Shown piece by piece: positions 1-13,814 of a stretch of 13,814 bases of DNA. Numbering within the stretch: position 1 is the first letter of the stretch; every line of letters starts with the position of its first letter. A program made the position numbers and the translations under genes. Origin of the DNA: a virus (Duplodnaviria; Heunggongvirae; Uroviricota; Caudoviricetes); the IMG/VR virus record IMGVR_UViG_2778261465_000003, positions 1 through 13,814 of that record. One strand, given 5' to 3'. The notes beneath the pieces were generated by a model. The model was not told the origin of the DNA. It was given only the letters and a program-made list of their open reading frames with translations, and did not search any database.

Positions 1-1074
1 TCATTTGTCGATTTCAATTTTGTCCCATTCCCGTCCACGGCTGTCCCTATACCGCGCCGCCATTGAATCTGATTTATGCCCGAGAAGACGTTGAGCAAAC
101 TTATCGCCAATCTGGTTCCGGTATAGCCTCGCTGACAGGCTACGCAGTTCATGGAATGTTGGCGGGTTTCCATCAAATGAGAGGCCAGATGCATTTCTCG
201 CCTTTGTAAAATACTTTGATACTGTTTTCGGGGAAAGCGGATCGTGATGCTTTGATGCGATTATAGTTTCACTGCTGCTGGCCTCCCTGCATTTCTGTAG
301 TGTATCAGCCAATGAGATATTGAGCGCGTCAATCGTTAGCGTTAGCGGAATGGCGAGTTTAGCCCCTGTTTTACTCTGTTTAATGTGAAGATGGTTGTCG
401 TTTATGTCTGACCATTTCATTCTGCACAAATCGCCGACTCTCTGCCCTGTAACGACGGCCAAATCCATCGCCAGCCTTAGCCAGATAGGGAGAGGTTCGG
501 CTGCATGGTAAATCTCGACATACTCATTAGCTGTCAGCCTTGAGCGCCTTACTTCTGACTTTGCTGTACGGGTTGCTGTTACCGGATTCGTTGCCACATG
601 CCCCTCGGCTATTGCTTCACGAAAAACGTCAACAAGGGTTGACCTGATTAATTTTGCGGAAGCTGCTTTACCTTCTGCTACGTAGGTGTTTAGCATTGCT
701 GCCACTTCTTTCGTTGATATGTCAGTGAGCGGTTTGTCCGGCAATTTTCTTCGGATTGCCCTGATTTTGCTGGCGTAGTCGAGTAGAGTTTTCGGCCTGA
801 TCCCCCTTTCGGTGAGGATTGTTTCATATCGGTCAAGCCACACATGAAGAGTGATTGCGTCACCGCCTTTAATTCTGTCTATTAGTGATTTGCGTCCGCT
901 GTCTGAGAGTAATTCAATATTGGCCTGTATTGCTTCAGTGATTGCTATCCTCCTGTCTCGGCCTAAACCAAACTCTTTACCCGTCCTTGGGTCCCTGTAG
1001 CAGTAATATCCATTGTTTCTTATATAAAGGTTAGGGGGTAAATCCCGGCGCTCATGACTTCGCCTTCTTCCCAT
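1..1074 (-). CDS. int: Phage integrase, tyrosine recombinase (lambda Int-like)
   Basis: 357-aa ORF, colinear with lambda Int as recalled: N-terminal arm-binding region MGRRRSHERRDLPPNLYIRNNGYYCYRDPRTGKEF and C-terminal catalytic region (HELRSLSARLY, LLGHKSD, ARYRD). Overlaps upstream xis by 23 nt as in lambda. Confidence 0.95.
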   Translation of the reverse strand: MGRRRSHERRDLPPNLYIRNNGYYCYRDPRTGKEFGLGRDRRIAITEAIQANIELLSDSGRKSLIDRIKGGDAITLHVWLDRYETILTERGIRPKTLLDYASKIRAIRRKLPDKPLTDISTKEVAAMLNTYVAEGKAASAKLIRSTLVDVFREAIAEGHVATNPVTATRTAKSEVRRSRLTANEYVEIYHAAEPLPIWLRLAMDLAVVTGQRVGDLCRMKWSDINDNHLHIKQSKTGAKLAIPLTLTIDALNISLADTLQKCREASSSETIIASKHHDPLSPKTVSKYFTKARNASGLSFDGNPPTFHELRSLSARLYRNQIGDKFAQRLLGHKSDSMAARYRDSRGREWDKIEIDK

Positions 1075-1270
1075 TTCTGATCCTCTTCAAAAGGCTACCT
1101 GTTACTGGTCGATTTAAGTCAACCTTTACCGCTGATTCGTGGAACAGATACTCTCTTCCATCCTTAACCGGAGGAGGGAATATCCTGCATTCGCGCACCC
1201 ATCGACGAACTGTTTCAAGGCTTCTTGGGCGTCGCTGGCGAGCGTTCCACTCCTGAAGTGTCAAGTACAT
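1052..1270 (-). CDS. xis: Excisionase (lambda Xis-like)
   Basis: Internal Met of track ORF 1052..1360 gives a 72-aa protein MYLTLQEWNARQRRPRSLETVRRWVRECRIFPPPVKDGREYLFHESAVKVDLNRPVTG, near-identical to lambda Xis as recalled. The 30 codons upstream in the track ORF are not Xis-like. Confidence 0.9.
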   Translation of the reverse strand: MYLTLQEWNARQRRPRSLETVRRWVRECRIFPPPVKDGREYLFHESAVKVDLNRPVTGSLLKRIRNGKKAKS

Positions 1271-1387
1271 CGCAAAGTCTCCGCAATTACACGCAAGAAA
1301 AAGCCGCATTGATGCGGCGATGGTAGGTCTGGATATCATTGAGCAATGAACAGGCCTCATCGAGTGTGAGGCGGTGTTATTTCATGG

Positions 1388-1648
1388 TTAGTCCTTGCGT
1401 AGCTCGCTGATTCTTCTGTAAGTCTCTGGTGCTTTGTTTCCGTGTATCTTCATTTCAGACTTCAACAGAGCAACGAGGGAATCCCATTCGTTGAGGATTC
1501 CTTTGAATGCCGGAACGCGCTTTGCAACCTTGTTGAATGAATCTCTGATTTCTGGAATCTGCTCAACAAGTGCAACGCATCGTCTGAAATCGGCTGCGTC
1601 ATGGGGAGCGCCGAAGTGATGACCATAGATATTCTTTTCAGTCCACAT
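1388..1648 (-). CDS. Hypothetical protein (86 aa), early-left accessory gene
   Basis: Track ORF with protein-like composition, immediately upstream of xis on the same strand. The overlapping alternative frame 1462..1758 begins inside a terminator hairpin. No family recognised. Confidence 0.5.
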   Translation of the reverse strand: MWTEKNIYGHHFGAPHDAADFRRCVALVEQIPEIRDSFNKVAKRVPAFKGILNEWDSLVALLKSEMKIHGNKAPETYRRISELRKD

Positions 1649-1744
1649 GCGATTGAGGCAAGAGTTGCGCTACTGATGCCGACATCGCCAGTCGATTGCC
1701 ATTTCAAAACCTTCATAGCCAAATCTGACATTTCTTGTCTCCAA

Positions 1745-1766
1745 TAAAAAACCGCCATCAGGCGGC
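1745..1766 (-). terminator. Intrinsic terminator (minus strand)
   Basis: Minus-strand reading GCCGCC-TGAT-GGCGGT (6-bp stem including one G.U) followed by six U; overlaps the stop codon of the 55-aa ORF. Confidence 0.5.
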
Positions 1767-1925
1767 TTGGTGTTCTTTCAGTTCTTCAATTCGAATATTG
1801 GTTACGTCTGCATGTGCTATCTGCGCCCATAGCATCCAGTGGTCATAGCAGTCATTGATGTTCTCTGCTTCGATAACTCTGTTGAATGGTTCTCCATTCC
1901 ATTCACCTGTGACTCGGAAGTGCAT
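1758..1925 (-). CDS. Small hypothetical protein (55 aa)
   Basis: Below the track threshold; translated by hand as MHFRVTGEWNGEPFNRVIEAENINDCYDHWMLWAQIAHADVTNIRIEELKEHQAA. GGAG Shine-Dalgarno 7 nt upstream of ATG; flanked by terminator hairpins on both sides. Confidence 0.35.
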   Translation of the reverse strand: MHFRVTGEWNGEPFNRVIEAENINDCYDHWMLWAQIAHADVTNIRIEELKEHQAA

Positions 1926-1936
1926 TTATCATCTCC

Positions 1937-1963
1937 ATAAAACAAAACTCGCCGTAGCGAGTT
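1937..1963 (-). terminator. Intrinsic terminator (minus strand) downstream of the DUF2513-like gene
   Basis: Perfect 7-bp stem AACTCGC / GCGAGTT with loop CGTA, followed on the minus strand by UUGUUUUAU. Confidence 0.45.
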
Positions 1964-2008
1964 CAGATATAATTTCCACCAAAGGCAGTAGTTGCTTGAT
2001 GCTAAGAA

Positions 2009-2437
2009 TTATTCAATATCTATTCCTGTAATATCTTTTATCTTTTTCCTTGCAAAGCCTTTTGCTAGTGATTTTGAAACACTCATAAGTGTACTAATTC
2101 CCTCATCCTTAAAGTTTGTTTTTATAGCTTGCCAGACATCCTTTTGACGTAAGTCAGCAATAAAATCATGCCCTCTTGCTGTCAACCTCAGTGGTACTTC
2201 GATCCAACTATATCCAACACCTTCCCCTAACGCTTTGGACATTATATGACCGAACCCAGGTTTTCCATCAACCCTGACTATTAATTCGTAGTCACATAAT
2301 AATCGCATATGGAAAATAAAATCTTGGTCATATCTATTAAAACCATTATCCTCTAGTTCACTAAGCATCGTGTCAGGGCCACGAGTTTTTTCGAATGCGA
2401 TAAGTAGATCTTTTAGATATTGCTGGTCTAATTTCAT
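2009..2437 (-). CDS. Hypothetical protein, possibly DUF2513-like (142 aa), AT-rich moron
   Basis: Track ORF with markedly lower GC than its neighbours (roughly mid-30s percent by eye). N-terminus MKLDQQYLKDLLIAFEK...YDQDFIFHMRLLCDYELIV resembles the DUF2513 pattern as recalled; weak assignment. Confidence 0.55.
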   Translation of the reverse strand: MKLDQQYLKDLLIAFEKTRGPDTMLSELEDNGFNRYDQDFIFHMRLLCDYELIVRVDGKPGFGHIMSKALGEGVGYSWIEVPLRLTARGHDFIADLRQKDVWQAIKTNFKDEGISTLMSVSKSLAKGFARKKIKDITGIDIE

Positions 2438-2465
2438 TGCCGCCTCCGTGACATGTCACAGAGAT

Positions 2466-2804
2466 TTATATCATTAATTTTGTTTCGTGCCAGCCTTTGG
2501 TCACCCAGCATTGTGAGTCACCATTACACGGGCATGAATTAACAGGAACTCTCTCGCCGCACTTACCGCAACGTTTTCTGCTGATCGATTTTATACGCCA
2601 GCGCACACGTGCATCATCCTGGCGGCTCAGTAACGCGATGTACTCACCAAACTCGCAAGGCGCACGCCTGAAGCGACGCGTGGCACAGTTACGCTCCAGC
2701 ATTTCAATTTCCTGAGCATCAAGTACAAGCTCCAGCTTACGCATACCGGATGATGCTTGCTTGGCTCTCTGATCGGCTTTGTGCTCTGTTGCTGATTTAG
2801 CCAT
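2466..2804 (-). CDS. Hypothetical Cys-rich protein (112 aa) with putative C-terminal zinc ribbon
   Basis: Track ORF; AGGAAA Shine-Dalgarno about 9 nt upstream of ATG at 2804. C-terminal CGKCGERVPVNSCPCNGDSQC (CxxC...CxC) and an N-terminal region with a possible ribbon-helix-helix-like beta strand (KLELVL). Confidence 0.5.
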   Translation of the reverse strand: MAKSATEHKADQRAKQASSGMRKLELVLDAQEIEMLERNCATRRFRRAPCEFGEYIALLSRQDDARVRWRIKSISRKRCGKCGERVPVNSCPCNGDSQCWVTKGWHETKLMI

Positions 2805-2848
2805 TCTGCTTTTCCTGCATCAGGAGAAAGACAATCATGGCGGCGCGG

Positions 2849-2944
2849 ATACTTCCGGTATCTTTTTACGCGATATTCCCCTTCAATGGCACATACAAAA
2901 AGAGAGCCATCCACAGGAGTGATTGAGGAATCGACAACCAGCAA
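2849..2944 (-). pseudogene. Relic of an S24 peptidase / repressor (UmuD, LexA, cI-type) C-terminal domain
   Basis: First about 32 codons of track ORF 2627..2944 (TTG start, stop immediately upstream) read LLVVDSSITPVDGSLFVCAIEGEYRVKRYRKY, resembling the UmuD core ([29 protein letters not shown]) and the lambda cI C-terminal domain as recalled. The rest of that ORF is out-of-frame overlap with the neighbouring gene. Confidence 0.4.
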
Positions 2945-2997
2945 CGCTTAATTATCTATAGTGTCGTATTTGCTTCATAAAATATGGCGAATAACAC

Positions 2998-3033
2998 AAA
3001 GCCCGCAGCAGCTCATTGTGCGGGCTTTTCTTA
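2998..3033. terminator. GC-rich hairpin, candidate bidirectional intrinsic terminator
   Basis: Perfect 10-bp inverted repeat AAAGCCCGCA / TGCGGGCTTT with an 11-nt loop, followed by TTTTCTT on the plus strand and a U-rich tract on the minus strand; sits between two minus-strand genes. Confidence 0.5.
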
Positions 3034-3097
3034 TACCTACTTCCTAGAGATAATTCTATGGAGGCATTAAATCAATACTGTCATTGGTAATATCATA

Positions 3098-3712
3098 TTA
3101 TCTAAAAGTCTTTCCACTTTTAACATCTAGGTATATTCTGTTCGACAACGTCATTCCTCCGCAATATGTGAAATAGATGTTTTCACCCTTATTGCTTGAT
3201 GCCATCCACCCTCCGATTTCCTTAAAATCGCTTTCCGTGCAGACCCCTTCATTTATTAACTTCCTAGCTGCCGAAGAAAACTCTTTTTTGTATATACGGT
3301 AGTCATCAGATCCTTTGATTAAAGTATCATCTCCGCTCGCATTTTCAGCAGGATCTGATGGCCTTTCACTGCTAAGATCACTAAGTTTAACCCATTCTGA
3401 AAACTTGCCATTAACGATTCCATTTTTTCTTGTGCAGGATTTATTACCTTCTTTAATATATTCGCTTTCCCCTCCAACACATGAGGCTGAATATGGCTCA
3501 GTTATACGAACCCATTCACCTTTTTTTTCTAGAAAATCTACGCCTTCCCTGAAAAATAGTTTCCCAGCCACTCCACATTTACTTGAAGGGCAGGTATGTC
3601 TTTCCGTTCGATCAACAACAACCCATAGTTTTGATTCATTTTTTGCCATTGCCGATGGTATTTGAGATGAGACAATTAACGTAAGCCCTAAAATTAGTAT
3701 TGATTTTTTCAT
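3098..3712 (-). CDS. Secreted Cys-rich protein of unknown function (204 aa, Sec signal peptide), AT-rich moron
   Basis: N-terminus MKKSILILGLTLIVSSQIPSAMA has a basic n-region, hydrophobic core and AxA cleavage motif. Six Cys in the mature part, consistent with periplasmic disulfides. Low GC; terminator hairpin downstream. Confidence 0.7.
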   Translation of the reverse strand: MKKSILILGLTLIVSSQIPSAMAKNESKLWVVVDRTERHTCPSSKCGVAGKLFFREGVDFLEKKGEWVRITEPYSASCVGGESEYIKEGNKSCTRKNGIVNGKFSEWVKLSDLSSERPSDPAENASGDDTLIKGSDDYRIYKKEFSSAARKLINEGVCTESDFKEIGGWMASSNKGENIYFTYCGGMTLSNRIYLDVKSGKTFR

Positions 3713-4010
3713 TGTAATTTCCTTTTACTTTTTACAAAGCGTTTAATCATGGCTGATTATCTCTAAGCGTAGTAACAGCCTTGTGCGAAACATGTTACCA
3801 AATCGCCATTTCAGTGTATCCGCAGTTAGGCTGCCACTTCAAGGATTCCTAATTACATGGTACGTAAGCGTAAAATCCCGTTGGTTGGCTGGTAATAACT
3901 CTGATCAAATCTCCCTTGTCTTTTGCTCTTACGTATGCAGCTCTTGTGTATTCAACCCAGGCCTCCAGTTCAGCAATACGCTTACTTCCATCCGAGATAA
4001 CACCTTCTAC

Positions 4011-4262
4011 TCACGCTGCTCGTTGAGTTTTGATTTTTGCTGTCTCCAGCTCAACACGCAGTTTCCCCACCGTTAGCGCAATATCCTCGTTCTCCTGGTC
4101 GCGGCGTTTGATGTATTGCTGGTTTCTTTCCCGTTCATCCAGCAGTGTCAGCACAATCGATGGTGTTACCAGCTCATGGAAAAGGTCCGCGTCAAATCCC
4201 CAGTTGTCATGCATTGCCTGCTCTGCCGCTTCACGCAGTGCCTGAGAGTGAATTACGCTCAC
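4011..4262 (-). CDS. Hypothetical protein (83 aa, GTG start), possibly truncated by an in-frame TGA
   Basis: Track ORF overlapping the upstream TraR-like gene by 4 nt (translational coupling). The same frame stays open for about 53 codons beyond the TGA, and a codon-matched antisense ORF (3783..4076) spans the junction. Confidence 0.45.
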   Translation of the reverse strand: MSVIHSQALREAAEQAMHDNWGFDADLFHELVTPSIVLTLLDERERNQQYIKRRDQENEDIALTVGKLRVELETAKIKTQRAA

Positions 4263-4480
4263 TTCGAACCTCTCTGTTTACTGATAAGCTCCAGATCTTC
4301 CTGGCAACTTGCACAAGTCCGACAACCCTGAACGGCCAGGCGTCTTCGCTCATCTATGGGATCGCCACACTCACAACAATGAGTGGCAGATACAGCCTGG
4401 TGGTTCAGGCGGCGCATTTTTATTGCTGTGTTGCGCTGTAATTCTTCAATTTCTGATGCTGAATCAATGATGTCTGCCAT
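4259..4480 (-). CDS. TraR/DksA family C4-type zinc-finger protein (73 aa)
   Basis: Motif CCECGDPIDERRRLAVQGCRTCASCQ (CxxC-x17-CxxC) near the C-terminus, typical of phage TraR/DksA-like proteins. Confidence 0.75.
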   Translation of the reverse strand: MADIIDSASEIEELQRNTAIKMRRLNHQAVSATHCCECGDPIDERRRLAVQGCRTCASCQEDLELISKQRGSK

Positions 4481-4534
4481 CTTCCATTAATCCCTGAATT
4501 GTTGGTTAATACGCTTGAGGATGAATGCGAACAA

Positions 4535-4556
4535 TAAAAAAGGAGCCTGTAGCTCC
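4535..4556 (-). terminator. Intrinsic terminator (minus strand)
   Basis: Minus-strand stem GGAGC / GCTCC with a 5-nt loop, followed by six U; 23 nt downstream of the gene ending at 4579. Confidence 0.5.
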
Positions 4557-4578
4557 CTGATGATTTTGCTTTTCATGT

Positions 4579-4794
4579 TCACCGTTCCTTAAAGACGCCG
4601 TTTAACATGCCGATCGCCAGGCTTAAATGAGTCGGTGTGAATCCCATCAGCGTTACCGTTTCGCGGTGCTTCTTTAGTACGCTACGGCAAATGTCATCGA
4701 CGTTTTTATCCGGAAACTGCTGTCTGGCTTTTTTGATTTCAGAATTAGCCTGACGGGCAATACTGCGAAGGGCGTTTTCCTGCTGATGTGTCAT
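4579..4794 (-). CDS. Hypothetical protein (71 aa from internal ATG; track ORF extends to 4860)
   Basis: Track ORF 4579..4860. The first 22 codons (MHFSGSGLHILCAYACRHGTCS) have no Shine-Dalgarno and odd composition, so the start at MTHQQENALRSIARQ... is preferred. Confidence 0.45.
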   Translation of the reverse strand: MTHQQENALRSIARQANSEIKKARQQFPDKNVDDICRSVLKKHRETVTLMGFTPTHLSLAIGMLNGVFKER

Positions 4795-4870
4795 TGAACA
4801 AGTCCCATGTCGGCAAGCATAAGCACACAGAATATGAAGCCCGCTGCCAGAAAAATGCATTCAGTGGTTG

Positions 4871-5062
4871 TCATACCTGGTCTCTCTCATCTGCTTCTGC
4901 TTTCGCCACCATCATTTCCAGCTTTTGTGAAAGGGATGCGGCTAACGTATGAAATTCTTCGTCTGTTTCTACTGGTATTGGCACAAACCTGACTCCAATT
5001 TGAGCGAGGCTATGTGCCATCTCAATGCTCGTTCTTAACTCAACAGGAGATGCTTTGTGCAT
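4871..5062 (-). CDS. Hypothetical protein (63 aa)
   Basis: Track ORF with a strong GGGGAG Shine-Dalgarno 4-5 nt upstream of ATG at 5062; acidic C-terminus. Confidence 0.5.
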   Translation of the reverse strand: MHKASPVELRTSIEMAHSLAQIGVRFVPIPVETDEEFHTLAASLSQKLEMMVAKAEADERDQV

Positions 5063-5176
5063 ACAGCTCCCCGTTTATTATTTATCTCCTCAGCCAGCCG
5101 CTGTGCTTTCAGGGGATTTCGGGTAACAGAAAGGCCGGGAAATACCCAGCCTCGCTTTGTAACGGAGTAGACGAAA

Positions 5177-5533
5177 GTGATCGCGCCTAACGGGGGCGGC
5201 GATTGGCAGGTTAAACCTGAACGTCGCAAGGCAGAACGAATCGACTACGAATCCTTCCTGAACGCCTACAACACCGAAGTCGGTGACAGACTTCCACACG
5301 CTGTTGCGGTCAACGAGAAACGAAAACGCCGCCTGAAGAAAATCATTCCGCAACTGAAAACGCCAAACGTGGACGGTTTCAGAGCGTATGTCAGGGCGTT
5401 TGTGCATCAGGCCAAGCCGTTTTACTTCGGAGACAACGACACGGGCTGGACGGCCGATTTTGATTACCTGCTGAGGGATGACTCGTTAACGGGGGTAACC
5501 GTACAGGTTTTACCTCGTCACGTGGCTTTCTGA
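5177..5533 (+). CDS. Possible C-terminal remnant of a phage replication-module protein (118 aa, GTG start)
   Basis: Protein-like ORF (...[25 protein letters not shown]) that begins directly after an in-frame stop with only GTG available. Tentative resemblance to the conserved C-terminal domain of phage replication proteins. The antisense ORFs 5090..5407 and 5035..5229 look like artefacts. Confidence 0.35.
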
Positions 5534-5885
5534 TGGCTGAAAGACGCTTTACCAGCTCGTCCATCGCCTGACTCGATGTATCGATGGTTCCGTTCTGAAT
5601 TGGTTCACGCATTTCATCCATGATTTCCAGCACCAGGCGGCGGTGATAGTTATCCGCGACCATTCCGGCATATCCCTTCAGGTTTGCGGCACTCGGGCAG
5701 TTTTTGCTGGTCATCAGGATTGACGTGAAATGCTCCTCTCCGCACGCCTCGGCAACCATCAGCGCGTCGATTAGGTTTCTGTTTCTCGCCTGCTTGCGGA
5801 TAACCTCGAAGGCTTTCCGGTAGAGCGGAATTGAAAACGCTTCCGGCTCCAGCGTTGCCAGAACGTCGCTGGCGGTTGGTGTTAA
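5500..5885 (-). pseudogene. DnaB-like replicative helicase N-terminal domain fragment, inverted relative to the nin/late genes
   Basis: Minus-strand translation ...[73 protein letters not shown]... is colinear with the E. coli DnaB N-terminal domain as recalled (...FYTRPHRHIF...LSKNTPSAANISAYADIVRERAVVREMI...). No ATPase domain is present; similarity is lost at about 5885. Confidence 0.55.
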
Positions 5886-6349
5886 AGGCAGCAGAGAAGA
5901 AACGACGACGAGAGGAGCAGAAACAGAAAGATAAACTTAAGATTCGAAAACTCGCCTTAAAGCCCCGCAGTTACTGGATTAAACAAGCCCAACAAGCCGT
6001 AAACGCCTTCATCAGAGAAAGAGACCGCGACTTACCATGTATCTCGTGCGGAACGCTCACGTCTGCTCAGTGGGATGCCGGGCATTACCGGACAACTGCT
6101 GCGGCGCCTCAACTCCGATTTGATGAACGCAATATTCACAAGCAATGCGTGGTGTGCAACCAGCACAAAAGCGGAAATCTCGTTCCGTATCGCGTCGAAC
6201 TGATTAACCGCATCGGGCAGGAAGCAGTAGACGAAATCGAATCAAACCATAACCGCCATCGCTGGACTGTCGAAGAGTGCAGGGCCATCAAGGCGGAGTA
6301 TCAACAGAAACTTAAAAAACTGCGAAACAGCAGAAGTGAGGCTGCATGA
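5831..6349 (+). CDS. ninG: NinG (Rap)-like recombination protein, N-terminus replaced or truncated
   Basis: From [56 protein letters not shown]... to the end it is colinear with lambda NinG as recalled. The first 18 residues ([21 protein letters not shown] start) are unrelated and lambda's N-terminal Cys-rich region is absent. Confidence 0.8.
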
Positions 6350-7017
6350 ATATCTACGAAAGAATTGATGGCAGCAAATACCGAAATATTTGGGTAGTTG
6401 GCGATCTGCACGGATGCTACACGAACCTGATGAACAAACTGGATACGATTGGATTCGACAACAAAAAAGACCTGCTTATCTCGGTGGGCGATTTGGTTGA
6501 TCGTGGTGCAGAGAACGTTGAATGCCTGGAATTAATCACATTCCCCTGGTTCAGAGCTGTACGTGGAAACCATGAGCAAATGATGATTGATGGCTTATCA
6601 GAGCGTGGAAACGTTAATCACTGGCTGCTTAATGGCGGTGGCTGGTTCTTTAATCTCGATTACGACAAAGAAATTCTGGCTAAAGCTCTTGCCCATAAAG
6701 CAGAAGAACTTCCGTTAATCATCGAACTGGTGAGCAAAGGTAAAAAATATGTCATCTGCCACGCCGATTATCCTTGTGACGAATACGAATTTGGAAAGCC
6801 AGTTGATCATCAGCAGGTAATCTGGAACCGCGAACGAATCAGCAACTCACAAGACGGGATCGTTAAAGAAATTAAAGGCGCGGACACGTTTATCTTTGGT
6901 CATACGCCAGCAGTGAAACCACTCAAATTTGCCAACCAGATGTATATCGATACTGGGGCAGTGTTCTGCGGAAATCTCACATTGATTCAGGTACAGGGAG
7001 AAGGCGCGTGGGCATAA
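6346..7017 (+). CDS. ninI: Ser/Thr protein phosphatase (lambda PPase, orf221/NinI-like metallophosphatase)
   Basis: 223 aa, near-identical to lambda phosphatase as recalled ([54 protein letters not shown]...GNHEQMM). GDLHG / GDLVDRG / GNHE metallophosphatase motifs; ATGA overlap with ninG. Confidence 0.95.
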
Positions 7018-7496
7018 GAGAACTAAACCTCACCAAAGAACAGCATGAGTGGCTGAATGGCTGGCTTGAACTGTGGGGCGCATGGGTTTATTCAGGTCGT
7101 CTGGAAAAGCGCATGAGCAGCGTAATAGCGAAGTTCATGGAGAGCGTAGAGCCGGGAAGAGTTATGACAAGGCCAATGTGTAATGATGATGATGGAATGT
7201 TGATTTCTCAGGTCGTCGATTCCGTCATGTACATTGACAAGAAAGCCTTTGGCATCCTCCTCAGCTACTACGCCCACGGCTCTTCCAAGCACGCCATTGC
7301 ATCTTACTATCATCGCGTCGCAAGACCTCGCAAGATGTTATGCCGGGGCGGCGGGCGCATTCAAAAACCATCGCTCGCAACCTGTCGACGGGAAGTTGAC
7401 GAAATCCTCAATGCCTCGTTGTTTATGATTTACCCGGTTCTGGATAGTGCGTTTAAAAACCGGAAACGTGTAGAGAAAATTAAACATGTAGCATAG
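7008..7496 (+). CDS. Q: Late-gene antiterminator Q (Phage_antitermQ family, Q21/Q82-like)
   Basis: 162 aa with WGAW near the N-terminus and the [13 protein letters not shown] motif typical of this Q family; sits just upstream of a promoter-like TTGACA and the lysis cassette. Start is a GTG overlapping the phosphatase stop. Confidence 0.85.
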
Positions 7497-7502
7497 AACG
7501 TG

Positions 7503-7540
7503 TTGACATCATTGAGCAAATGAGCAACACTATTCGCATA
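7503..7540 (+). promoter_or_regulatory. Candidate late promoter (pR'-like) and Q-utilisation region
   Basis: Consensus -35 TTGACA at 7503..7508, immediately after Q and upstream of a hairpin plus T-run. No convincing -10 at 17 +/- 1 bp, so the call rests on position and the -35 only. Confidence 0.3.
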
Positions 7541-7541
7541 A

Positions 7542-7583
7542 GCTGCCGTTAGTGACTCTTAAGTTGCAACGGTGGCTTTTTTT
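7542..7583 (+). terminator. Candidate tR'-like intrinsic terminator
   Basis: 9-bp stem GCTGCCGTT / AACGGTGGC (two G.U pairs) with a 17-nt loop, followed by seven T. The large loop makes this moderate. Confidence 0.4.
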
Positions 7584-7587
7584 ATTT

Positions 7588-7662
7588 GGGTCAGTCGTAT
7601 AAAGGTCATTACGGAAGGCTGTTAACCTTCTTATCGTGGTTCGAGTCCACGCTGTCCCGCCA
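7588..7662 (+). tRNA. tRNA-Asn (anticodon GUU)-like, one acceptor-stem mismatch
   Basis: Hand-folded cloverleaf: acceptor GGGTCAG / CTGTCCC (T.T at pair 4-69), D-loop AAAGGTCA, anticodon stem GAAGG / CCTTC, loop CTGTTAA (anticodon GTT), T-arm CGTGG-TTCGAGT-CCACG, discriminator G, encoded CCA. Anticodon and T loops match E. coli tRNA-Asn as recalled. Confidence 0.6.
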
Positions 7663-7667
7663 AATAT

Positions 7668-7743
7668 GCTGGTTTAGCTCCAATGGTAGAGCGGTCGCCT
7701 TGTAAGCGAATGGGTAGCGGTTCAAGTCCGTTAACCAGCACCA
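7668..7743 (+). tRNA. tRNA-Thr (anticodon UGU)-like
   Basis: Hand-folded cloverleaf: perfect 7-bp acceptor GCTGGTT / AACCAGC, D-arm GCTC-CAATGGTA-GAGC, anticodon stem GTCGC / GCGAA (27-43 mismatch), loop CTTGTAA (anticodon TGT), T-arm AGCGG-TTCAAGT-CCGTT, discriminator A, encoded CCA. Confidence 0.7.
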
Positions 7744-7861
7744 TAACTGAGCCGTAGCCACTGGATGTCCTGAATTCATCAGTGATAGTTATGCTGCGGT
7801 CTTCTTTTTCTCCCTTCCCAATATAAGAACTACGCAATCCGTTACTGGCGGAGGCGTTGCT

Positions 7862-8077
7862 ATGAAATCAATGGACAAAATCTCAACTGGCATTGCCTAC
7901 GGAACATCCGCTGGTAGTGCGGGATACTGGTTTTTGCAGTGGTTGGATCAGGTCAGTCCATCACAGTGGGCTGCGATTGGGGTGCTTGGAAGCCTTGTGT
8001 TGGGCTTTCTCACCTATCTGACAAATCTGTACTTCAAAATCAGAGAAGACAGAAGAAAGGCTGCGAGAGGTGAATAA
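7862..8077 (+). CDS. S: Class II holin (phage 21 S21-type pinholin) with dual-start motif
   Basis: 71 aa, [71 protein letters not shown], matches phage 21 S21 as recalled. Met1-Lys-Ser-Met4 gives antiholin and holin starts; two transmembrane segments. Confidence 0.95.
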
Positions 8078-8574
8078 TGCCTCCATCATTACGAAAAGCC
8101 GTTGCTGCGGCTATTGGTGGCGGGGCTATTGCTATAGCATCTGTGTTAATCACTGGCCCAAGTGGTAACGATGGTCTGGAAGGCGTCAGCTACATACCAT
8201 ATAAAGATATCGTTGGTGTATGGACTGTATGTTACGGGCATACCGGAAAAGACATTATGCTCGGTAAAACGTATACCAAAGCAGAATGCAAAGCCCTCCT
8301 GAATAAAGACCTTGCCACTGTCGCCAGACAAATTAACCCGTACATCAAAGTCGATATACCGGAAACAACGCGCGGCGCTCTTTACTCGTTCGTTTACAAC
8401 GTTGGTGCTGGAAATTTCAGAACATCGACGCTTCTTCGCAAAATAAACCAGGGCGATATCAAAGGCGCATGTGATCAGCTACGGCGCTGGACATACGCTG
8501 GCGGTAAGCAATGGAAAGGTCTCATGACTCGTCGTGAGATTGAGCGTGAAGTCTGTTTATGGGGGAAGCAATGA
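8077..8574 (+). CDS. R: SAR endolysin (phage 21 R21-like, T4-lysozyme fold)
   Basis: 165 aa. N-terminal signal-anchor-release domain rich in Gly/Ala ([20 protein letters not shown]) followed by a lysozyme domain ([18 protein letters not shown]...); matches phage 21 R as recalled. Start overlaps the holin stop. Confidence 0.95.
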
Positions 8575-8969
8575 AGATCCACTACAAGATAATTATCTTC
8601 GCGTTCGCGTTCGCATTGAGCGTACTGGGCGTCATCGTTTGGTCAGCAAGCCATTATCACGATAAGTATCAGGCGGAACGGCTACGCGCAGATGCTGCCG
8701 AGCAGAACGCCAACGCCGCCGAAGCGATCACCGCCAACGTCATTCGGTCTGTGAACATCATCAACGCCATTGCAGAGGCCAACCAGGATGCAAAGAACCA
8801 GATCACACTGGAGTCACAGGGAGCCCAAGCAGATATCAAAGTGGCTATTGAGAATGATGACTGCGCTCATCGGCCTGTGCCTCCTGCAACTGCTCACCGG
8901 CTGCGGCAATTCGCGGACAGTTTACGTACCGGTATCGGTAGTGCCTCTACCGGCAAACCTGACAGCTGA
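8571..8969 (+). CDS. Rz: i-spanin (Rz-like inner-membrane spanin)
   Basis: N-terminal transmembrane segment ([20 protein letters not shown]) then an Ala/Gln/Glu-rich periplasmic region; directly follows the endolysin; GGGGGAAG Shine-Dalgarno before ATG 8571 (track ORF starts at 8559). Confidence 0.8.
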
Positions 8970-9111
8970 GACGCAACAGCCAGCCATTCCCGAACCGCTG
9001 ACCTATGGGGCCAGTCTGGAGCTGAATGTTAGCCTGCTATCGGCGCTGGGTCAGTGCAACATCGATAAGGCTAGTATCAGGAAGATTGAAGAGTCTCGGA
9101 CCTCTCTGTAG
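8854..9111 (+). CDS. Rz1: o-spanin (Rz1-like outer-membrane lipoprotein), overlapped architecture
   Basis: +1 frame starting inside Rz: [17 protein letters not shown] with lipobox LTGC, then a Pro-rich mature region ([20 protein letters not shown]). Runs 142 nt past the Rz stop. Confidence 0.75.
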   Translation: MMTALIGLCLLQLLTGCGNSRTVYVPVSVVPLPANLTAETQQPAIPEPLTYGASLELNVSLLSALGQCNIDKASIRKIEESRTSL

Positions 9112-9147
9112 AAGACTATTTTGCTGCCATGAAGAAGCTTTATATCT

Positions 9148-9177
9148 TTGGTCAATACATCGAACAGATCAGATAAT
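9148..9177 (+). promoter_or_regulatory. Candidate sigma70 promoter for the protease gene
   Basis: TTGGTC, 18-bp spacer, GATAAT in the AT-rich spacer after Rz1, about 55 nt upstream of the protease ATG. Confidence 0.35.
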
Positions 9178-9231
9178 TCTTATGTGATTGATGCTATATT
9201 TATCCCCTATTTAAACATGGGAGTTACGGAT

Positions 9232-10032
9232 ATGTCTGTCAGTCAAGATATTTATAAGTCTACACTTAGAGTTGAAAGTGATACTCCAGAGGGAACCTCG
9301 GTAGGAACTGCTTTCTGGTTTTGCTTTGTTATGGAAGGTGGTGAAGATATTGTTCCACTCTTGGTAACTAATAAGCATGTTGTTAACGGGGCAACAGAAG
9401 TTAGACTACGTCTAAACATTACCGACAGCGCAAATCCTGAGATAAAATTTTATAACCTAACAATTTCAGAGGGGGCAAATGCGTTCATTATGCACCCTGA
9501 TGATAATGTTGATATATGCATATTGCCTATCGCTGGATTGCTGAATGAGATGGAGAAAAGTGGCATTAGCCCAGAACTCTTCTTTTTCACAGATCGTCAG
9601 ATGCGTGGTAACAATTACATTACTCCTGTCGAAGATGTTTACATGACAGGATATCCAAATGGATTATGGGATTCTGTAAACAATAGGCCTGTTACCAGGA
9701 AAGGCATCACAGCATCATCACCTATGGAAAACTGGAAGGGTAAGCCTGAATTCCTCATTGATATGGCTTGTTTCGGTGGTTCTAGCGGTTCTCCCGTTTA
9801 TATAATGAACCAAGGCTCATATGCTACTAATGATGGTATTGCTATGGGGGAGAGATTAATTTTCCTTGGGTTGTTGTATGCAGGGCCAGTAACGAATGTT
9901 AGCGGGAATATTGAAATTATTGACGTACCAACAGTCGCTACACCAGTTGTGCGTTCTGAAATTACAATGAATCTCGGATTTGTTATTAAAGCAGAGAAGC
10001 TAAATGACTTTAAGCCTCTCTTGGGGATTTAA
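9232..10032 (+). CDS. Cytoplasmic trypsin-like serine protease (chymotrypsin fold, Trypsin_2-like), AT-rich accessory gene
   Basis: 266 aa from ATG 9232 (GGGAG Shine-Dalgarno 8 nt upstream; track ORF starts at a TTG at 9148). Catalytic triad in canonical order and context: His in LLVTNKHVV, Asp in DDNVDICILPIAG, Ser in GGSSGSPVY. No signal peptide or transmembrane segment. GC clearly lower than the flanking phage genes. Confidence 0.75.
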   Translation: MSVSQDIYKSTLRVESDTPEGTSVGTAFWFCFVMEGGEDIVPLLVTNKHVVNGATEVRLRLNITDSANPEIKFYNLTISEGANAFIMHPDDNVDICILPIAGLLNEMEKSGISPELFFFTDRQMRGNNYITPVEDVYMTGYPNGLWDSVNNRPVTRKGITASSPMENWKGKPEFLIDMACFGGSSGSPVYIMNQGSYATNDGIAMGERLIFLGLLYAGPVTNVSGNIEIIDVPTVATPVVRSEITMNLGFVIKAEKLNDFKPLLGI

Positions 10033-10037
10033 CACAA

Positions 10038-10059
10038 GCCGCCTCCGGACGGTTTTTTT
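10038..10059 (+). terminator. Possible weak intrinsic terminator after the protease gene
   Basis: Imperfect GC hairpin (CCGCC..GGACGG) followed by seven T, beginning 6 nt after the protease stop. Confidence 0.4.
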
Positions 10060-10071
10060 ATTGCTATTACA

Positions 10072-10097
10072 AAAGCCACTCCATGCCGAGTGGCTTT
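10072..10097. repeat. Perfect 10-bp inverted repeat (stem-loop)
   Basis: AAAGCCACTC-catgcc-GAGTGGCTTT. Could be a minus-strand terminator (short U tract follows on that strand) or a protein or RNA structural site. Confidence 0.5.
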
Positions 10098-10165
10098 GAT
10101 AATGGCTTATACCCTACACGGGATAACTTAACTGATATCCCAACAAGCGGATAAAGAGGTTCTCA

Positions 10166-10291
10166 ATGTCCGACATCTACCAAATCATGTTAACCACCCA
10201 AACAGGCGAAACCTTTACGGGTAAGATGTCACGACGTCAGCGTGAGCTGGTTAATGGCTTTATGCAGCCGGCTACCGAGATGGGCGAGTAG
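10166..10291 (+). CDS. Small hypothetical protein (41 aa)
   Basis: Below track threshold; MSDIYQIMLTTQTGETFTGKMSRRQRELVNGFMQPATEMGE, with AAGAGG Shine-Dalgarno 6 nt upstream of ATG. Confidence 0.35.
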   Translation: MSDIYQIMLTTQTGETFTGKMSRRQRELVNGFMQPATEMGE

Positions 10292-10380
10292 AATAACTCC
10301 ATTAGGAGAATGTGGAACCATTACACTTTGAGCCGTTAACTGATATTGATAAAGGTAAATAATATCGTGGTTAAGGTTTT

Positions 10381-10653
10381 CTAATAGCCAGCCATTTGCA
10401 AAATCACAGTTGCAGCAGCAGCGAAAGCTGCATATGAGTTATATTTAGACTGTAACCGCGCAGTTAAGAAAAATTCGTGAAGATCTACATTTTTTTGGGG
10501 ATCATCAAATGTAATTGCTACAACGGTGCTTCTACCTGTTTTGACTTTGGCTGTTGCTGATTTGATCCATAACCCAGCCGATAAAAAACCAAAGAAAATT
10601 GATAGTGTATGATGGTCAATTAACCAGTTTTTAATTAGTAATAAATCACTCAT
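10381..10653 (-). CDS. Small hydrophobic (putative membrane) protein, about 90 aa, AT-rich
   Basis: Track ORF 10381..10698, start taken at internal ATG 10653 because the track start lies inside terS. One clear hydrophobic segment (LSIFFGFLSAGLWI) and a hydrophobic C-terminus. An open frame this long is unlikely by chance in AT-rich DNA. Convergent with the protease unit. Confidence 0.45.
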   Translation of the reverse strand: MSDLLLIKNWLIDHHTLSIFFGFLSAGLWIKSATAKVKTGRSTVVAITFDDPQKNVDLHEFFLTARLQSKYNSYAAFAAAATVILQMAGY

Positions 10654-10677
10654 TTTCAATCCAATTGAGACTTTGCC

Positions 10678-11229
10678 ATGGCACTCACCGACAAACAAGA
10701 AATGTTCTGTCGCGAGTACCTCATCGATTTAAACGCCACACAAGCGGCTATTCGGGCGGGGTACAGCGCAAAGACAGCCAACCGTACTGCGTCCGAAAAC
10801 ATGTCAAAACCTGACATCAAGTTAAGAATCGCTGAACTGAAAGCGCAACGCAATGATCTTGTTGGTATTAATGCAGAATATGTACTTAATCGCCTTCTTG
10901 AAATCGACCAGATGGATGTGCTTGACATTCTCCTGCAAAACGGTGAGCTAAAACCCATTAAAGACTGGCCTAAGGTATGGCGCACAACGCTATCAGGAAT
11001 GGATGTCGTGGAGATGGTATCCGCAGATAGCGCCGCACTTCTGAAGAAAATCAAATGGCCTGATAAGGTTAAAAATCTTGAGTTGCTTGGGCGTCATGTT
11101 TCTGTTCAGGCGTTTAAAGACAATGTCAAAAATGAAGTGACTGGCGCTGATGGAGGACCAGTCAGAACAGAAATTACCAACTTAACGCCGGAGCAGGCTG
11201 CAGAGGCGTATAGAAAAATGATGGGCTAA
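10678..11229 (+). CDS. Terminase small subunit (Terminase_2-like, N-terminal helix-turn-helix)
   Basis: 183 aa; N-terminal [57 protein letters not shown] is characteristic of phage TerS; immediately followed by the large subunit. Confidence 0.85.
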
Positions 11230-11231
11230 GT

Positions 11232-12194
11232 ATGCCGTTACCATTCCCCTTCGATTTTAAACATCCTGATTACCAGATGGTTTTTGAATGGCGGATGGAA
11301 CGCCTACAGCGCATTCGCCAGAATCCTGAAATATTGCCCGTGTTGAAGCAGTTTTACCGAACCAATCCGGCTCAGTTCATCATCGACTGGGGCATGACAA
11401 CGGACCCGCGTAATATTGATTATGGCCTGCCGGTAACCATTCCGTTTTTACTCTTCCCTAAGCAGGAGGAGTGGATCCACTGGATTATGGAACGCTGGAG
11501 CAATCGGGAGAATGGTATTACCGAAAAATCCCGTGAAATGGGGCTCAGTTGGACCGCGATCGGACTGGCCTGCTCGCTTTGTCTCTTCAACAAAGAAATG
11601 GTTATCGGTTTCGGCTCCCGTAAAGAGGAATACGTCGACAGCACCGGTGACCCGAAAGCATTGTTCTGGAAGGCGCGCAAGTTCGTGGAAACACTACCTG
11701 TAGAGTTTCGCGGTTCGTGGAGCGAGAAGAAGCACGCGCCATATATGCGTGTTGAGTTTCCTGAAACTGGTGCCGTTATCAAAGGCGAGGCTGGCGATAA
11801 TATTGGTCGTGGTGACCGTACCACGCTTTATCTGGTTGATGAGGCTGCATTCCTTCAGCGTCCTCTGCTGATTGATGCGGCGTTGTCACAAACGACGCGT
11901 TGCCGTATTGACCTGAGTTCAGTTAACGGCATGGCGAACCCGTTCGCTCAGAAGCGTCATGGCGGGAAGATACCGGTATTCACATTCCACTGGCGGGATG
12001 ATCCTCGCAAGGATGAAGAGTGGTATCGCAGGGAATGCGAGAAAATCGATAATCCGGTGGTGGTGGCACAGGAACTTGATCTGAACTACAGCGCATCAGC
12101 GGAAGGCGTCCTGATTCCATCCGAATGGGTACAGGCTGCCGTTGATGCGCATATCAAACTGGGTATGGTGCTGTTTCTAATGTTACCGGTGTAA
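11232..12194 (+). CDS. Terminase large subunit, ATPase domain only (C-terminal nuclease domain missing)
   Basis: 320 aa with a Walker-B-like [10 protein letters not shown] and TerL-like N-terminal half, but far shorter than an intact TerL of this type, which is usually well over 400 aa. The ORF ends in a short non-homologous tail where another frame takes over. Confidence 0.8.
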
Positions 12195-12724
12195 CCCGCC
12201 ACAAACTCTATGAAAACGATAATGGTTCGGAGGACGGTAACGGGTTACCGCCACACTCTGTTGCTGTAATTGTGGATGGCGGTGATGTGACGGATATTGC
12301 TCAGGCTATCAGAGGGAATAAAGGCCAGGGAACAGCCACTCACGGTACAACATCCGTTACGGTTCCGGATAAATACGGCAATCCCCATGTAATCAAATTT
12401 TCGCGTTCCAGTGATGTGCCTGTTTATGCCCGGATTAAATTAAAAGTTTTTACGGGTTATACCTCACAGATAGGGCAGCAGATCCAGCAGGCTATTTCCG
12501 ACTATATCAATAGTCTGATGATTGGTGATTCGGTCCTTTTAAGTCGCATTTACTCACCGGCGAATCTTGGCGTGGTGAGTGGCGGGAATGCACGCTATTA
12601 CGATATTCAGGAACTGACGATTGGGAAATCCCCGGGGGCTTTGTCGTCATCAAACATTGATATCAGATACAACGAATCTGCGTCCTGTACCCCGGAAAAT
12701 ATCGTTATAACGGTGGAGTCATGA
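12146..12724 (+). pseudogene. Baseplate-J-like protein, C-terminal fragment (e14 JayE-like), no proper start
   Basis: Frame open from 12146, overlapping the TerL tail; only a GTG at 12272 is available. Tentatively resembles the C-terminal part of baseplate J family proteins; ATGA-coupled to the downstream tail gene. Confidence 0.5.
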
Positions 12725-13401
12725 GCAAATACACCGAACTAATCACGAACTACCACGCCACCAAACCTAAATTTCTTGCACATGTTGATCTGATGACCCG
12801 GCCGCTTATTGATGTTGCGGCTGCCACCAGAGGGCTGATTACTGCATTTGATATTGACTCTGCGGTTGGTGTGCAACTTGACATTCTGGGATTGTGGATC
12901 GGACGTAGCCGTGTTGTCAGCCAGCCTATTTCAGGTGTCTATTTCAGCTGGGATACCGACGGGCTTGGATATGATCAGGGTGTATGGCAGGGGCCATACG
13001 ATCCTGATTCCGGATACATGTACCTCAGCGATGAAACTTATCGTGTCATCCTTAAAGCGAAGATTGCGATTAATAACTGGGACGGACGGAATGATTCGCT
13101 TCCGGCAATTCTTGACGCGGCAACAGCAGGATCCGGACTGCGAATGCAGATAGTCGATAACCAGGACATGACGATATCGGTCTGGGTCTTTCCTGATACT
13201 GATATTTCAGATGTATCGCGTGAGTTAATTGCGGCAATTAAACAGGGGTATCTCACAGTAAAAGCCGCCGGGGTATGGGCGGGTGGCATTGAAACACCTT
13301 CGGTGGAAACCCCATCGGAAGGCTCAAAATTTTTTGGTTTTGATATGGATAACGAATTCATCAGTGGTTTTGATGTAGGAGCATGGGGAGTATTACTCTG
13401 A
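12721..13401 (+). CDS. Phage tail/baseplate protein, DUF2313 (YmfQ / Mu gp48-like)
   Basis: 226 aa; resembles E. coli e14 YmfQ-type tail proteins as recalled; translationally coupled on both sides. Confidence 0.65.
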
Positions 13402-13814
13402 TGGCGAAAAATGACTTTAAAGCGTTTGCAACGGATCGAAATGCCAATGTTATATCGCAGGAGAAATGGGAAGCGTTGCCCGCGCTTTTATCTGGATTTA
13501 CAGCAGGGAAAGCCTCCAGTGCGCAAGTCAATAAGGTTATTCGGCAGGCCAGCTTTATTGCTGCAGCTCTGGCCCAGTTTGTAAGTGATAAAACGCAACG
13601 GGATGTGCTTGATAATGGTGATCTGCCCGGTTTTGTTGAATTGCTGGGATCGGGGTTTGCTGTTGAATACCTGAGCCGCAAGAATCCGTTTGGCGATATC
13701 AAATCGGATGGCACGGTGAAAACGGCTCTCGAAAACCTTGGTTTGGGAGAAGCGGCTAAAAGGAATGTAGGGACAGGGGCGAATCAGATACCTGATATGG
13801 GTAGCTTCACGCTT
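13401..13814 (+). CDS. Side tail fibre protein, N-terminal part (continues beyond the window)
   Basis: ATG at 13401 overlapping the upstream stop, GGGGAG Shine-Dalgarno; [60 protein letters not shown]... is typical of a tail-fibre N-terminal anchor region. Open to the window end. Confidence 0.7.

Follow-up and report, generated by a model that had tools for sequence, protein, structure and literature searches.

The zinc metalloprotease Lit, encoded by the e14 prophage, is activated by a phage peptide and cleaves a host factor (EF-Tu), and Lit/Gol thus provides a precedent with which a prophage-borne protease may be compared. Lambdoid phages are furthermore known to carry so-called morons, in the sense of Hendrix, at the junction between their lysis and packaging genes, as exemplified by lambda bor, 933W stk and the rha/orf80 region of P22. 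Here, we describe a gene for a predicted trypsin-like serine protease at such a junction in a stretch of 13,814 nucleotides of viral DNA (Caudoviricetes; positions 1 to 13,814 of IMG/VR record IMGVR_UViG_2778261465_000003), which is referred to below as the window. Trypsin-like domains of retron type XI, Lamassu LmuA-protease, Avs4-protease and trypsin-MBL are described in the literature as defence effectors or activators, while 145 'phage defence candidates' (PDC systems), proposed on the grounds that their homologues are embedded in BREX, DISARM or type I restriction-modification (RM) loci, have been catalogued separately (10.1101/2024.01.29.577857). The window protease was found to be a full-length member of one of the latter, PDC-S45, and single-gene anti-phage defence to the benefit of the lysogen is its most likely function, for which we see about an even chance.

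The protease open reading frame (ORF) and the elements that define it are the following:
9232 (ATG) to 10030-10032 (TAA), plus strand: protease ORF, 266 amino acids (aa), PA clan (S1, Trypsin_2), PDC-S45 / PHROG 7688 family
9376-9378, plus strand: codon of catalytic H49
9511-9513, plus strand: codon of catalytic D94
9784-9786, plus strand: codon of catalytic S185
9219-9223, plus strand: Shine-Dalgarno sequence GGGAG, 8 nt 5' of the ATG

The ATG at 9232 is favoured by the family alignment, the frames of 282 or 294 aa called by some annotators beginning farther upstream. The catalytic residues reside in the motifs TNKH49VV, DNVD94ICIL and GGSS185GSPV. Across 76 aligned homologues, with identities down to 41%, H49, D94 and the segment G183-S184-S185-G186-S187-P188 are invariant, as are T11, R13, G140-Y-P-x-G-x-W-D147, N150-N151, R156, P233 and N247-x-G249. 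Neither a signal peptide nor a transmembrane segment was recognized by inspection and a hydropathy scan of the protein, whose first 25 residues have a mean Kyte-Doolittle value of -0.52 and whose highest 19-residue window reaches 1.34; the protein is acidic, with an isoelectric point of 4.6. The ratio of nonsynonymous to synonymous substitution rates (dN/dS) amounts to 0.09 between the window and Klebsiella copies (dS 0.91) and to 0.088 between the Klebsiella and Serratia copies, with dS ranging from 0.9 to 1.3 over the comparisons, and these codon-level estimates indicate that the family is under strong purifying selection. The gene is predicted to encode an active, divergent, single-domain cytoplasmic PA-clan serine protease.

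The fold assignment is consistent with this prediction. Pfam Trypsin_2 (PF13365) matches residues 32-190 at 42.1 bits, the cut-off being 27.6 (E 1.9e-10), and an AlphaFold model based on the family alignment (predicted local distance difference test (pLDDT) 90.3, predicted template modelling score 0.87) displays the predicted double beta-barrel of the PA clan / S1 peptidases, with a loop at approximately residues 226-241 that is conserved yet poorly modelled. The top Foldseek ranks were occupied by Esp/V8 glutamyl endopeptidases, the protease domain of FAM111A and HtrA proteins, at template modelling (TM) scores of ~0.5-0.6. A search of the PDB with the family profile returned glutamyl endopeptidases only (best E 5e-5), NCBIfam was found to contain no specific model for the family, and neither a housekeeping nor a virion protease emerged as a homologue in these PDB sequence and NCBIfam searches. 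At the family level, PADLOC PDC-S45 (PDLC05022) was matched with an E value of 7.5e-100, protein residues 2-264 aligning with profile positions 15-283 of 293, and PHROG 7688, whose function is not known, was likewise matched in full length, with an E value of 1.7e-100.

An earlier, sequence-only reading of this DNA had proposed a 266-aa ORF with a complete His-Asp-Ser triad, a chymotrypsin fold to be placed within the PA clan by profile search and structure prediction, a cytoplasmic protein devoid of a signal peptide, and a strong Shine-Dalgarno sequence, all of which the above data bear out. An inactive triad on alignment and homology to a well-characterized housekeeping or virion protease, which it had named as counterevidence, were not encountered in the 76 homologues and in the searches described above, respectively. 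Its interpretation of the protein as a possible exclusion or abortive-infection effector points in a reasonable direction. It had not recognized a named defence family, a point that requires correction in view of the full-length PDC-S45 match; as a consequence of this membership the idea of defence was already present in a public catalogue, which lowers its novelty. What the present analysis adds are the boundaries of the insert, its recurrent placement, a confirmation of the stand-alone architecture, the fold assignment and the evidence for selection.

The gene is located in a discrete insert downstream of the spanin genes, and the features of this region are as follows:
8559-8969, plus strand: Rz (Pfam DUF2570)
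8854-9111, plus strand: Rz1-like o-spanin of the LysC family (Pfam LysC, E 1.2e-18), nested in Rz and extending past its end
9112-9231, plus strand: AT-rich upstream spacer of 120 bp, which travels with the protease gene
9149-9177, plus strand: promoter-like TGGTCA-17-GATAAT with a 9/12 score, the same site as TTGGTC-18-GATAAT
10036-10059, plus strand: terminator-like hairpin followed by T7, directly 3' of the stop codon (-7.3 kcal/mol, z -1.7)
10072-10097, plus strand: second, strong hairpin, with a 10-bp stem including flanking A-U pairs and a poor U-tract; backbone sequence
10166-10291, plus strand: 41-codon ORF of the phage backbone, between the protease gene and terS
10381-10698, minus strand: hydrophobic 105-codon ORF of the phage backbone, overlapping the start of terS
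10678-11229, plus strand: terS, small terminase subunit (Pfam Terminase_2, E 2.8e-39), the first packaging gene 3' of the slot

E. coli prophage L001 shares 99.5% identity with the window in the NinG-Q region; in comparison with it, homology ends at 9111, i.e., at the Rz1 stop codon, and restarts at 10065; these edges were set by local BLAST, a global MAFFT alignment being uninformative. This break in homology delimits 9112-10064, comprising the spacer, the ORF and the first hairpin, as a discrete cargo module of 953 bp. The Rz1-terS interval of L001 measures 296 bp and does not contain the protease, while in E. coli HZ13, where the backbone also restarts at 10065, the slot is filled by a gene for a Rha regulator. 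Backbone homology 3' of the insert extends over 10065-10155 with regard to L001 and over 10065-10700 with regard to HZ13. The 41-codon and 105-codon ORFs are common to E. coli prophages lacking the protease, are called hypothetical in strain HZ13, and returned no match in Pfam or PADLOC. Since the protease gene is missing at the same slot in related functional prophages, it is dispensable.

The base composition of the insert also deviates from that of its surroundings, with a GC content of 40.2% for the protease ORF (34% at third codon positions) and 33% for the upstream spacer, versus 54% for Rz, 57% for Rz1, 46% for terS and 51% for the terL fragment. Presence or absence at one position and deviant base composition (40% GC versus 46-57% in the flanks) characterize a moron, and 9112-10064 is predicted, from these sequence features, to be an accessory module of this type 3' of the spanin genes, carried as cargo. 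A hairpin equivalent to, and stronger than, that at 10036-10059 follows the Salmonella, Klebsiella and Serratia homologues; that of the Salmonella copy has a predicted energy of -13.8 kcal/mol (z -3.9), and the weakness of the window hairpin is due to an A at 10049, where the Salmonella and Klebsiella copies have a G. Most enterobacterial copies are followed by a tandem pair of hairpins, and the stretch containing the second hairpin of the window (10066-10104) folds with -17.1 kcal/mol. The AT-richness relative to the flanks (40.2% versus 46-57% GC) and the moron-type slot (nearly empty, with 296 bp, or occupied by Rha in relatives) were both anticipated by the sequence-only reading. Its placement of the insert between Rz1 and terS is correct as to a discrete unit with an edge at 9112, but the gene and terS are not immediate neighbours, two small ORFs lying between them; the downstream T-run hairpin is present at 10036-10059, but is weak in this copy; and the promoter-like element exists as a site, but proved no better than chance, as detailed below.

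The same reading had suggested a survey of homologues at the same locus, and such homologues indeed recur in this slot in unrelated prophages (percentages denote identity):
Salmonella, P22-like prophages with terminases of the Sf6 or P22 gp3 type: immediately 3' of Rz/Rz1, 97%
Klebsiella, prophages: immediately 3' of the spanin genes, 85% and 59%
Serratia, remnant of a prophage: immediately 3' of the spanin genes, 58%
E. coli C3728, prophage with head genes of the HK97 family and a tail sheath gene: flanked by the lysis genes and HNH/terS, 68% at the protein level
Morganella, prophage: immediately 5' of terS, 44%
Shigella phage SfII: a truncated copy, SfII_57, flanked by Rz1/IS911 and HNH
Bacillus, phage-plasmid: flanked by tail genes and the integrase/lysis genes, 41.5%

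A protease that is 100% identical at the protein level occurs in two intact metagenomic prophages. One intact metagenomic prophage, L004, is 99.6% identical to the window over 6995-12166 and its protease is identical. The slot is thus shared by homologues with 44-97% identity in unrelated prophages of Salmonella, Klebsiella, Serratia, E. coli and Morganella, and placement between Rz1 and terS, or immediately before terS, recurs in at least six host genera and on several phage backbones. Among sequenced phages the family is rare: megablast and tblastn searches of 50,697 phage records with the window gene returned no match, and a search of the same records with the Klebsiella homologue P0040 returned a single match, the truncated SfII_57 (KC736978.1, 3971-4591), which is 31.5% identical to residues 84-257 of P0040 and lies beside IS911 in the equivalent Rz1-HNH/terS slot. 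Among 5,426 complete E. coli genomes, no near-identical copy of the window variant was revealed by megablast, and a more distant search returned one 67%-identical copy, that of C3728, a variant which is present in 1/5,426. Approximately 100 IMG/VR contigs carry the protease family, many of which appear, judged by their identifiers alone, to be prophages from isolate genomes.

Two further genes were noted in protease-carrying prophages. BstA is a known abortive-infection protein of prophages, and a protein with a BstA_C domain is encoded beside the repressor gene in related prophages that carry the protease (L005, 384-1253; L008, 7-930), so that more than one defence cargo may be present in the same prophage. 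In Klebsiella prophages, a PhageMetallopep (PF18894) gene is situated just 3' of the protease gene and before the terminase (L091, 6976-7614; L093, 5889-6527), which places two different protease genes at one junction.

Beyond prophages, the family is large and its distribution is broad and patchy. At E<=1e-30 it falls into 1,954 clusters (50% identity), and almost all of these are 265-300 aa long. With one genome scanned per species, 289 species were found to encode a relative, all of full length and with ~40% identity, and these species cover almost every bacterial phylum, including Proteobacteria, Firmicutes, Bacteroidota, Actinobacteria, Verrucomicrobia, Planctomycetes, Cyanobacteria and candidate phyla radiation lineages, in addition to one Thermoplasmata archaeon. 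A few members are longer at the N-terminus (P0187, P0194, P0263 and others); no additional Pfam domain was detected in them, and they probably reflect mis-called starts or fusion artefacts. An all-against-all BLAST of 379 ORFs, covering up to three ORFs on either side of the gene in 78 loci from different species, did not reveal any conserved partner, the largest cross-species cluster of neighbours being drawn from 4 loci. These results confirm the single-gene architecture of the PDC-S45 family.

When 141 immediate and 126 second neighbours were scanned with Pfam and PADLOC, no partner emerged either; the Pfam families seen most often were integrase, HTH_3, Fic, AAA_16/22, YhcG nuclease, resolvase, HsdM, TIR, Schlafen and PIN, with no Pfam family present in more than three of the 141 or 126 neighbours. 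In some genomes the gene is located close to BREX, RM or TIR genes, which reproduces the embedding that underlies the candidacy of PDC-S45. For example, in a metagenome-assembled genome of Balneola (L025, 4429-15159) the homologue overlaps the end of the BREX gene pglX by 4 bp, and one ORF further on lies a gene for a 1,783-aa protein that matches the profiles of TmtA and MkoA; here, a family member is clearly embedded in a defence locus. Elsewhere, a homologue is found two ORFs from a type I HsdR (L040), directly after a TIR/ThsB-like protein (L082), in a metagenomic island together with an integrase, a TIR-caspase protein, an HD protein and a transposase (L100), and alongside an MvaI-type restriction enzyme on a 13-kb Acinetobacter plasmid.

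With regard to the window itself, its content identifies it as a lambdoid prophage: it harbours a lambda-type integrase and excisionase, a DksA/TraR zinc-finger gene, NinG, a NinI-like phosphatase and Q, followed by tRNA-Asn, tRNA-Thr, holin, lysozyme, Rz/Rz1, the protease, terS and terL. Annotation of 1-13814 did not reveal any repressor, cro or replication genes. The prophage is a defective deletion derivative with junctions near 4860-5831 and 12166-12272; TerL is cut at ~12166 (320 aa versus 540 aa in relatives) and joined to tail or baseplate genes. The remaining features of note are:
5831-6349: NinG, with ~42 N-terminal profile positions missing
7588-7662, plus strand: tRNA-Asn (GTT), between the Q antiterminator and holin genes, as in E. 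coli prophage L001
7668-7743, plus strand: tRNA-Thr (TGT), between the Q antiterminator and holin genes, as in E. coli prophage L001
12721-13401: DUF2612 tail/baseplate gene, beyond the TerL junction

Two ORFs on the minus strand in the left part of the window were also observed. One, of 204 aa (3098-3712), lies within an island of 36-39% GC, has a signal-peptide-like N-terminus (MKKSILILGLTLIVSSQIPSAMA) and returned no match in Pfam or PADLOC; it may represent a second moron in the integrase-proximal region. The other (2009-2437) encodes a DUF2513-family protein (E 7.7e-11) in an AT-rich stretch of ~38-39% GC between xis and the early-left genes, and did not match any PADLOC profile.

Several observations weigh against a role of the protease in defence. 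The PDC systems are referred to as untested by Payne et al. (10.1101/2024.01.29.577857) and as unvalidated in a later paper, and a literature search, which included the supplementary files of the PDC paper, did not yield any report testing PDC-S45 or a stand-alone trypsin-like defence. The neighbours are heterogeneous, each defence-type family occurring in 2-3 of 141 and housekeeping genes being present as well, a survey based on counts only. With E values of 2.7e-6 for RT-Protease_XI and 7e-4 for LmuA, the PADLOC matches of the window protease fall short of its match to the generic Trypsin_2 profile (1.9e-10), and are therefore not specific. A protease of one domain has no obvious sensor. Furthermore, the gene is situated on the late-operon strand, and the gaps to neighbouring genes are as short as 71 bp in Klebsiella, and 36 and 49 bp in Morganella. 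Promoter-like sites of the type seen at 9149-9177 number 5, against 5.1 expected in shuffled sequence, and the window shares the -10-like part, but not the -35-like part, with the Salmonella copy and with the Klebsiella copy of 85% identity. Based on this comparison of upstream regions and on the shuffled expectation, a conserved own promoter was rejected as unproven. Given its strand, the short gaps and a promoter-like site that is no better than chance, the gene is possibly expressed only late in the lytic cycle of the prophage.

This last possibility leads to the alternative that survives best, although we consider it unlikely: a late protease which is expressed from the Q-dependent operon and serves the phage in its own lytic cycle, by degrading host immune or other proteins or by processing a phage protein. 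The orientation of the gene within the late operon, the short intergenic gaps in Klebsiella and Morganella and a promoter that is not above chance are all in keeping with such a role, but the conserved terminators directly 3' of the gene fit an insulated unit. Similarly, the Enterobacterales copies are always located beside lysis or packaging genes, yet the family is common outside phages, with PglX, HsdR and TIR proteins as neighbours and on small plasmids with restriction enzymes, and 50,697 sequenced phage genomes contain a single, truncated copy. A protease with a task in the lytic cycle is also difficult to reconcile with its dispensability in related functional prophages and with its being kept intact in remnants that are unable to make virions, namely the window and the Serratia remnant.

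A function in host fitness or addiction, for example as a toxin-like stabilizing protease or as a stress or quality-control protease, appears more improbable still. Protease toxins of plasmid-stability systems do exist, IetS being an example (PMC13069673), and this precedent, together with the carriage of the family on plasmids, prophages and islands, would suit a stabilizing role; the 78 loci, however, contain no conserved antitoxin or partner gene. The structural relatives HtrA/Deg are quality-control proteases, but the window protein has neither a PDZ domain nor a signal peptide and is hence not a periplasmic chaperone-protease of the HtrA type, and the patchy and rare occurrence of the gene (1/5,426 complete genomes for the E. 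coli variant) is unlike that of a housekeeping function. That the gene is merely a decaying passenger of a defective prophage is very improbable, since, despite deletions throughout the surrounding prophage (truncated NinG and TerL, missing immunity and replication genes) and a weakening substitution in the terminator stem, the gene retains an uninterrupted ORF, 100% identical to those of intact prophages, and a complete triad, and its family is under strong purifying selection.

If the protease does act as a single-gene defence of the lysogen, it would stay latent, or at least do no harm, as long as the cell is not infected. Upon entry of a different phage, it might cleave an essential host protein, as EF-Tu is cleaved by Lit, and so cause abortive infection, or, alternatively, it might attack a phage protein directly; either way, phage production would be blocked. 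A separate sensor domain and a partner gene are both absent, so that the protease would itself have to recognize infection, either by its substrate specificity or by responding allosterically to a phage peptide. The DegS/HtrA proteases, which are its closest structural relatives, are activated by peptides, which shows that such allostery is possible in this fold. Since the gene belongs to a cryptic prophage and is situated in a late operon that depends on Q, it could also be trans-activated by the Q protein of a superinfecting lambdoid phage. Expression in the lysogen, latency, trigger, substrate and anti-phage phenotype are what we infer for this protease, and its link to exclusion or abortive infection is an associative one. 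No particular sub-mechanism is given more than approximately half the weight of defence as such, and it is only tentatively that we propose the lone 266-residue protease to be a complete immune system, sensing infection via its own substrate or allosteric site and then killing the cell or destroying a phage protein.

Should the family indeed defend against phages, it would be among the smallest protease-based immune systems, with no separate sensor and no partner, and it would pose a clean mechanistic question, namely how a single chymotrypsin-fold domain recognizes infection. It would then represent a minimal sensor-effector that is distributed across almost all bacterial phyla (~2,000 clusters at 50% identity) and fixed between Rz1 and terS in enterobacterial prophages. 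Given the size of the family and its phylogenetic breadth, validating its function would provide an annotation for thousands of genes now labelled 'S1 family peptidase'. The fixed position 3' of the spanin genes supports the notion of the lysis-packaging junction as a cargo slot, and the occurrence of the same backbone with and without the gene offers natural isogenic comparisons.

In relation to described systems, the window protease is closest to PDC-S45, with which it shares a full-length profile match and a single-gene organization, some members of that family being located near BREX, type I RM or TIR genes; it differs in that the window copy occupies a prophage late-operon slot and is not inside a defence system. 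Like Lit, it is a prophage-encoded, cytoplasmic, single-protein protease, but Lit is a non-homologous HExxH zinc metalloprotease, whereas the window enzyme has a predicted Ser/His/Asp chymotrypsin fold and did not match any metalloprotease family in Pfam or PADLOC, so that the likeness would be one of function only. Fold class and Pfam family are shared with the proteases of retron XI, Lamassu, Avs4 and trypsin-MBL. In those systems, a sensor (reverse transcriptase, ABC ATPase or STAND NTPase) is fused to or paired with the protease, often along with a pro-effector (MBL, nuclease or Pepco), whereas the window protease has neither a fusion nor a conserved neighbour; being encoded by a stand-alone ORF with no reverse transcriptase or LmuB/LmuC partner, it was ruled out as a retron XI or Lamassu effector. 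HtrA/DegS/DegQ (S1C) and V8/Esp (S1B) possess a PDZ domain, signal peptide or propeptide, none of which is present in the window protease, and approximately 180/266 residues superpose on HtrA or V8, the window family having its own insertions and the motifs GYPxGxWDxxNN and xNLG. HtrA/DegP was accordingly ruled out (no Pfam PDZ match, no signal peptide, TIGR02037 at E 0.21 versus a 416-bit cut-off), the resemblance to HtrA in the model being confined to the core fold. Finally, the locus resembles the lambdoid morons in its presence or absence at a fixed slot, its deviant base composition and the terminator-like hairpin 3' of the gene, which is weakened in the window copy, and differs from them in its cargo, which is a protease instead of a membrane protein, kinase or regulator.

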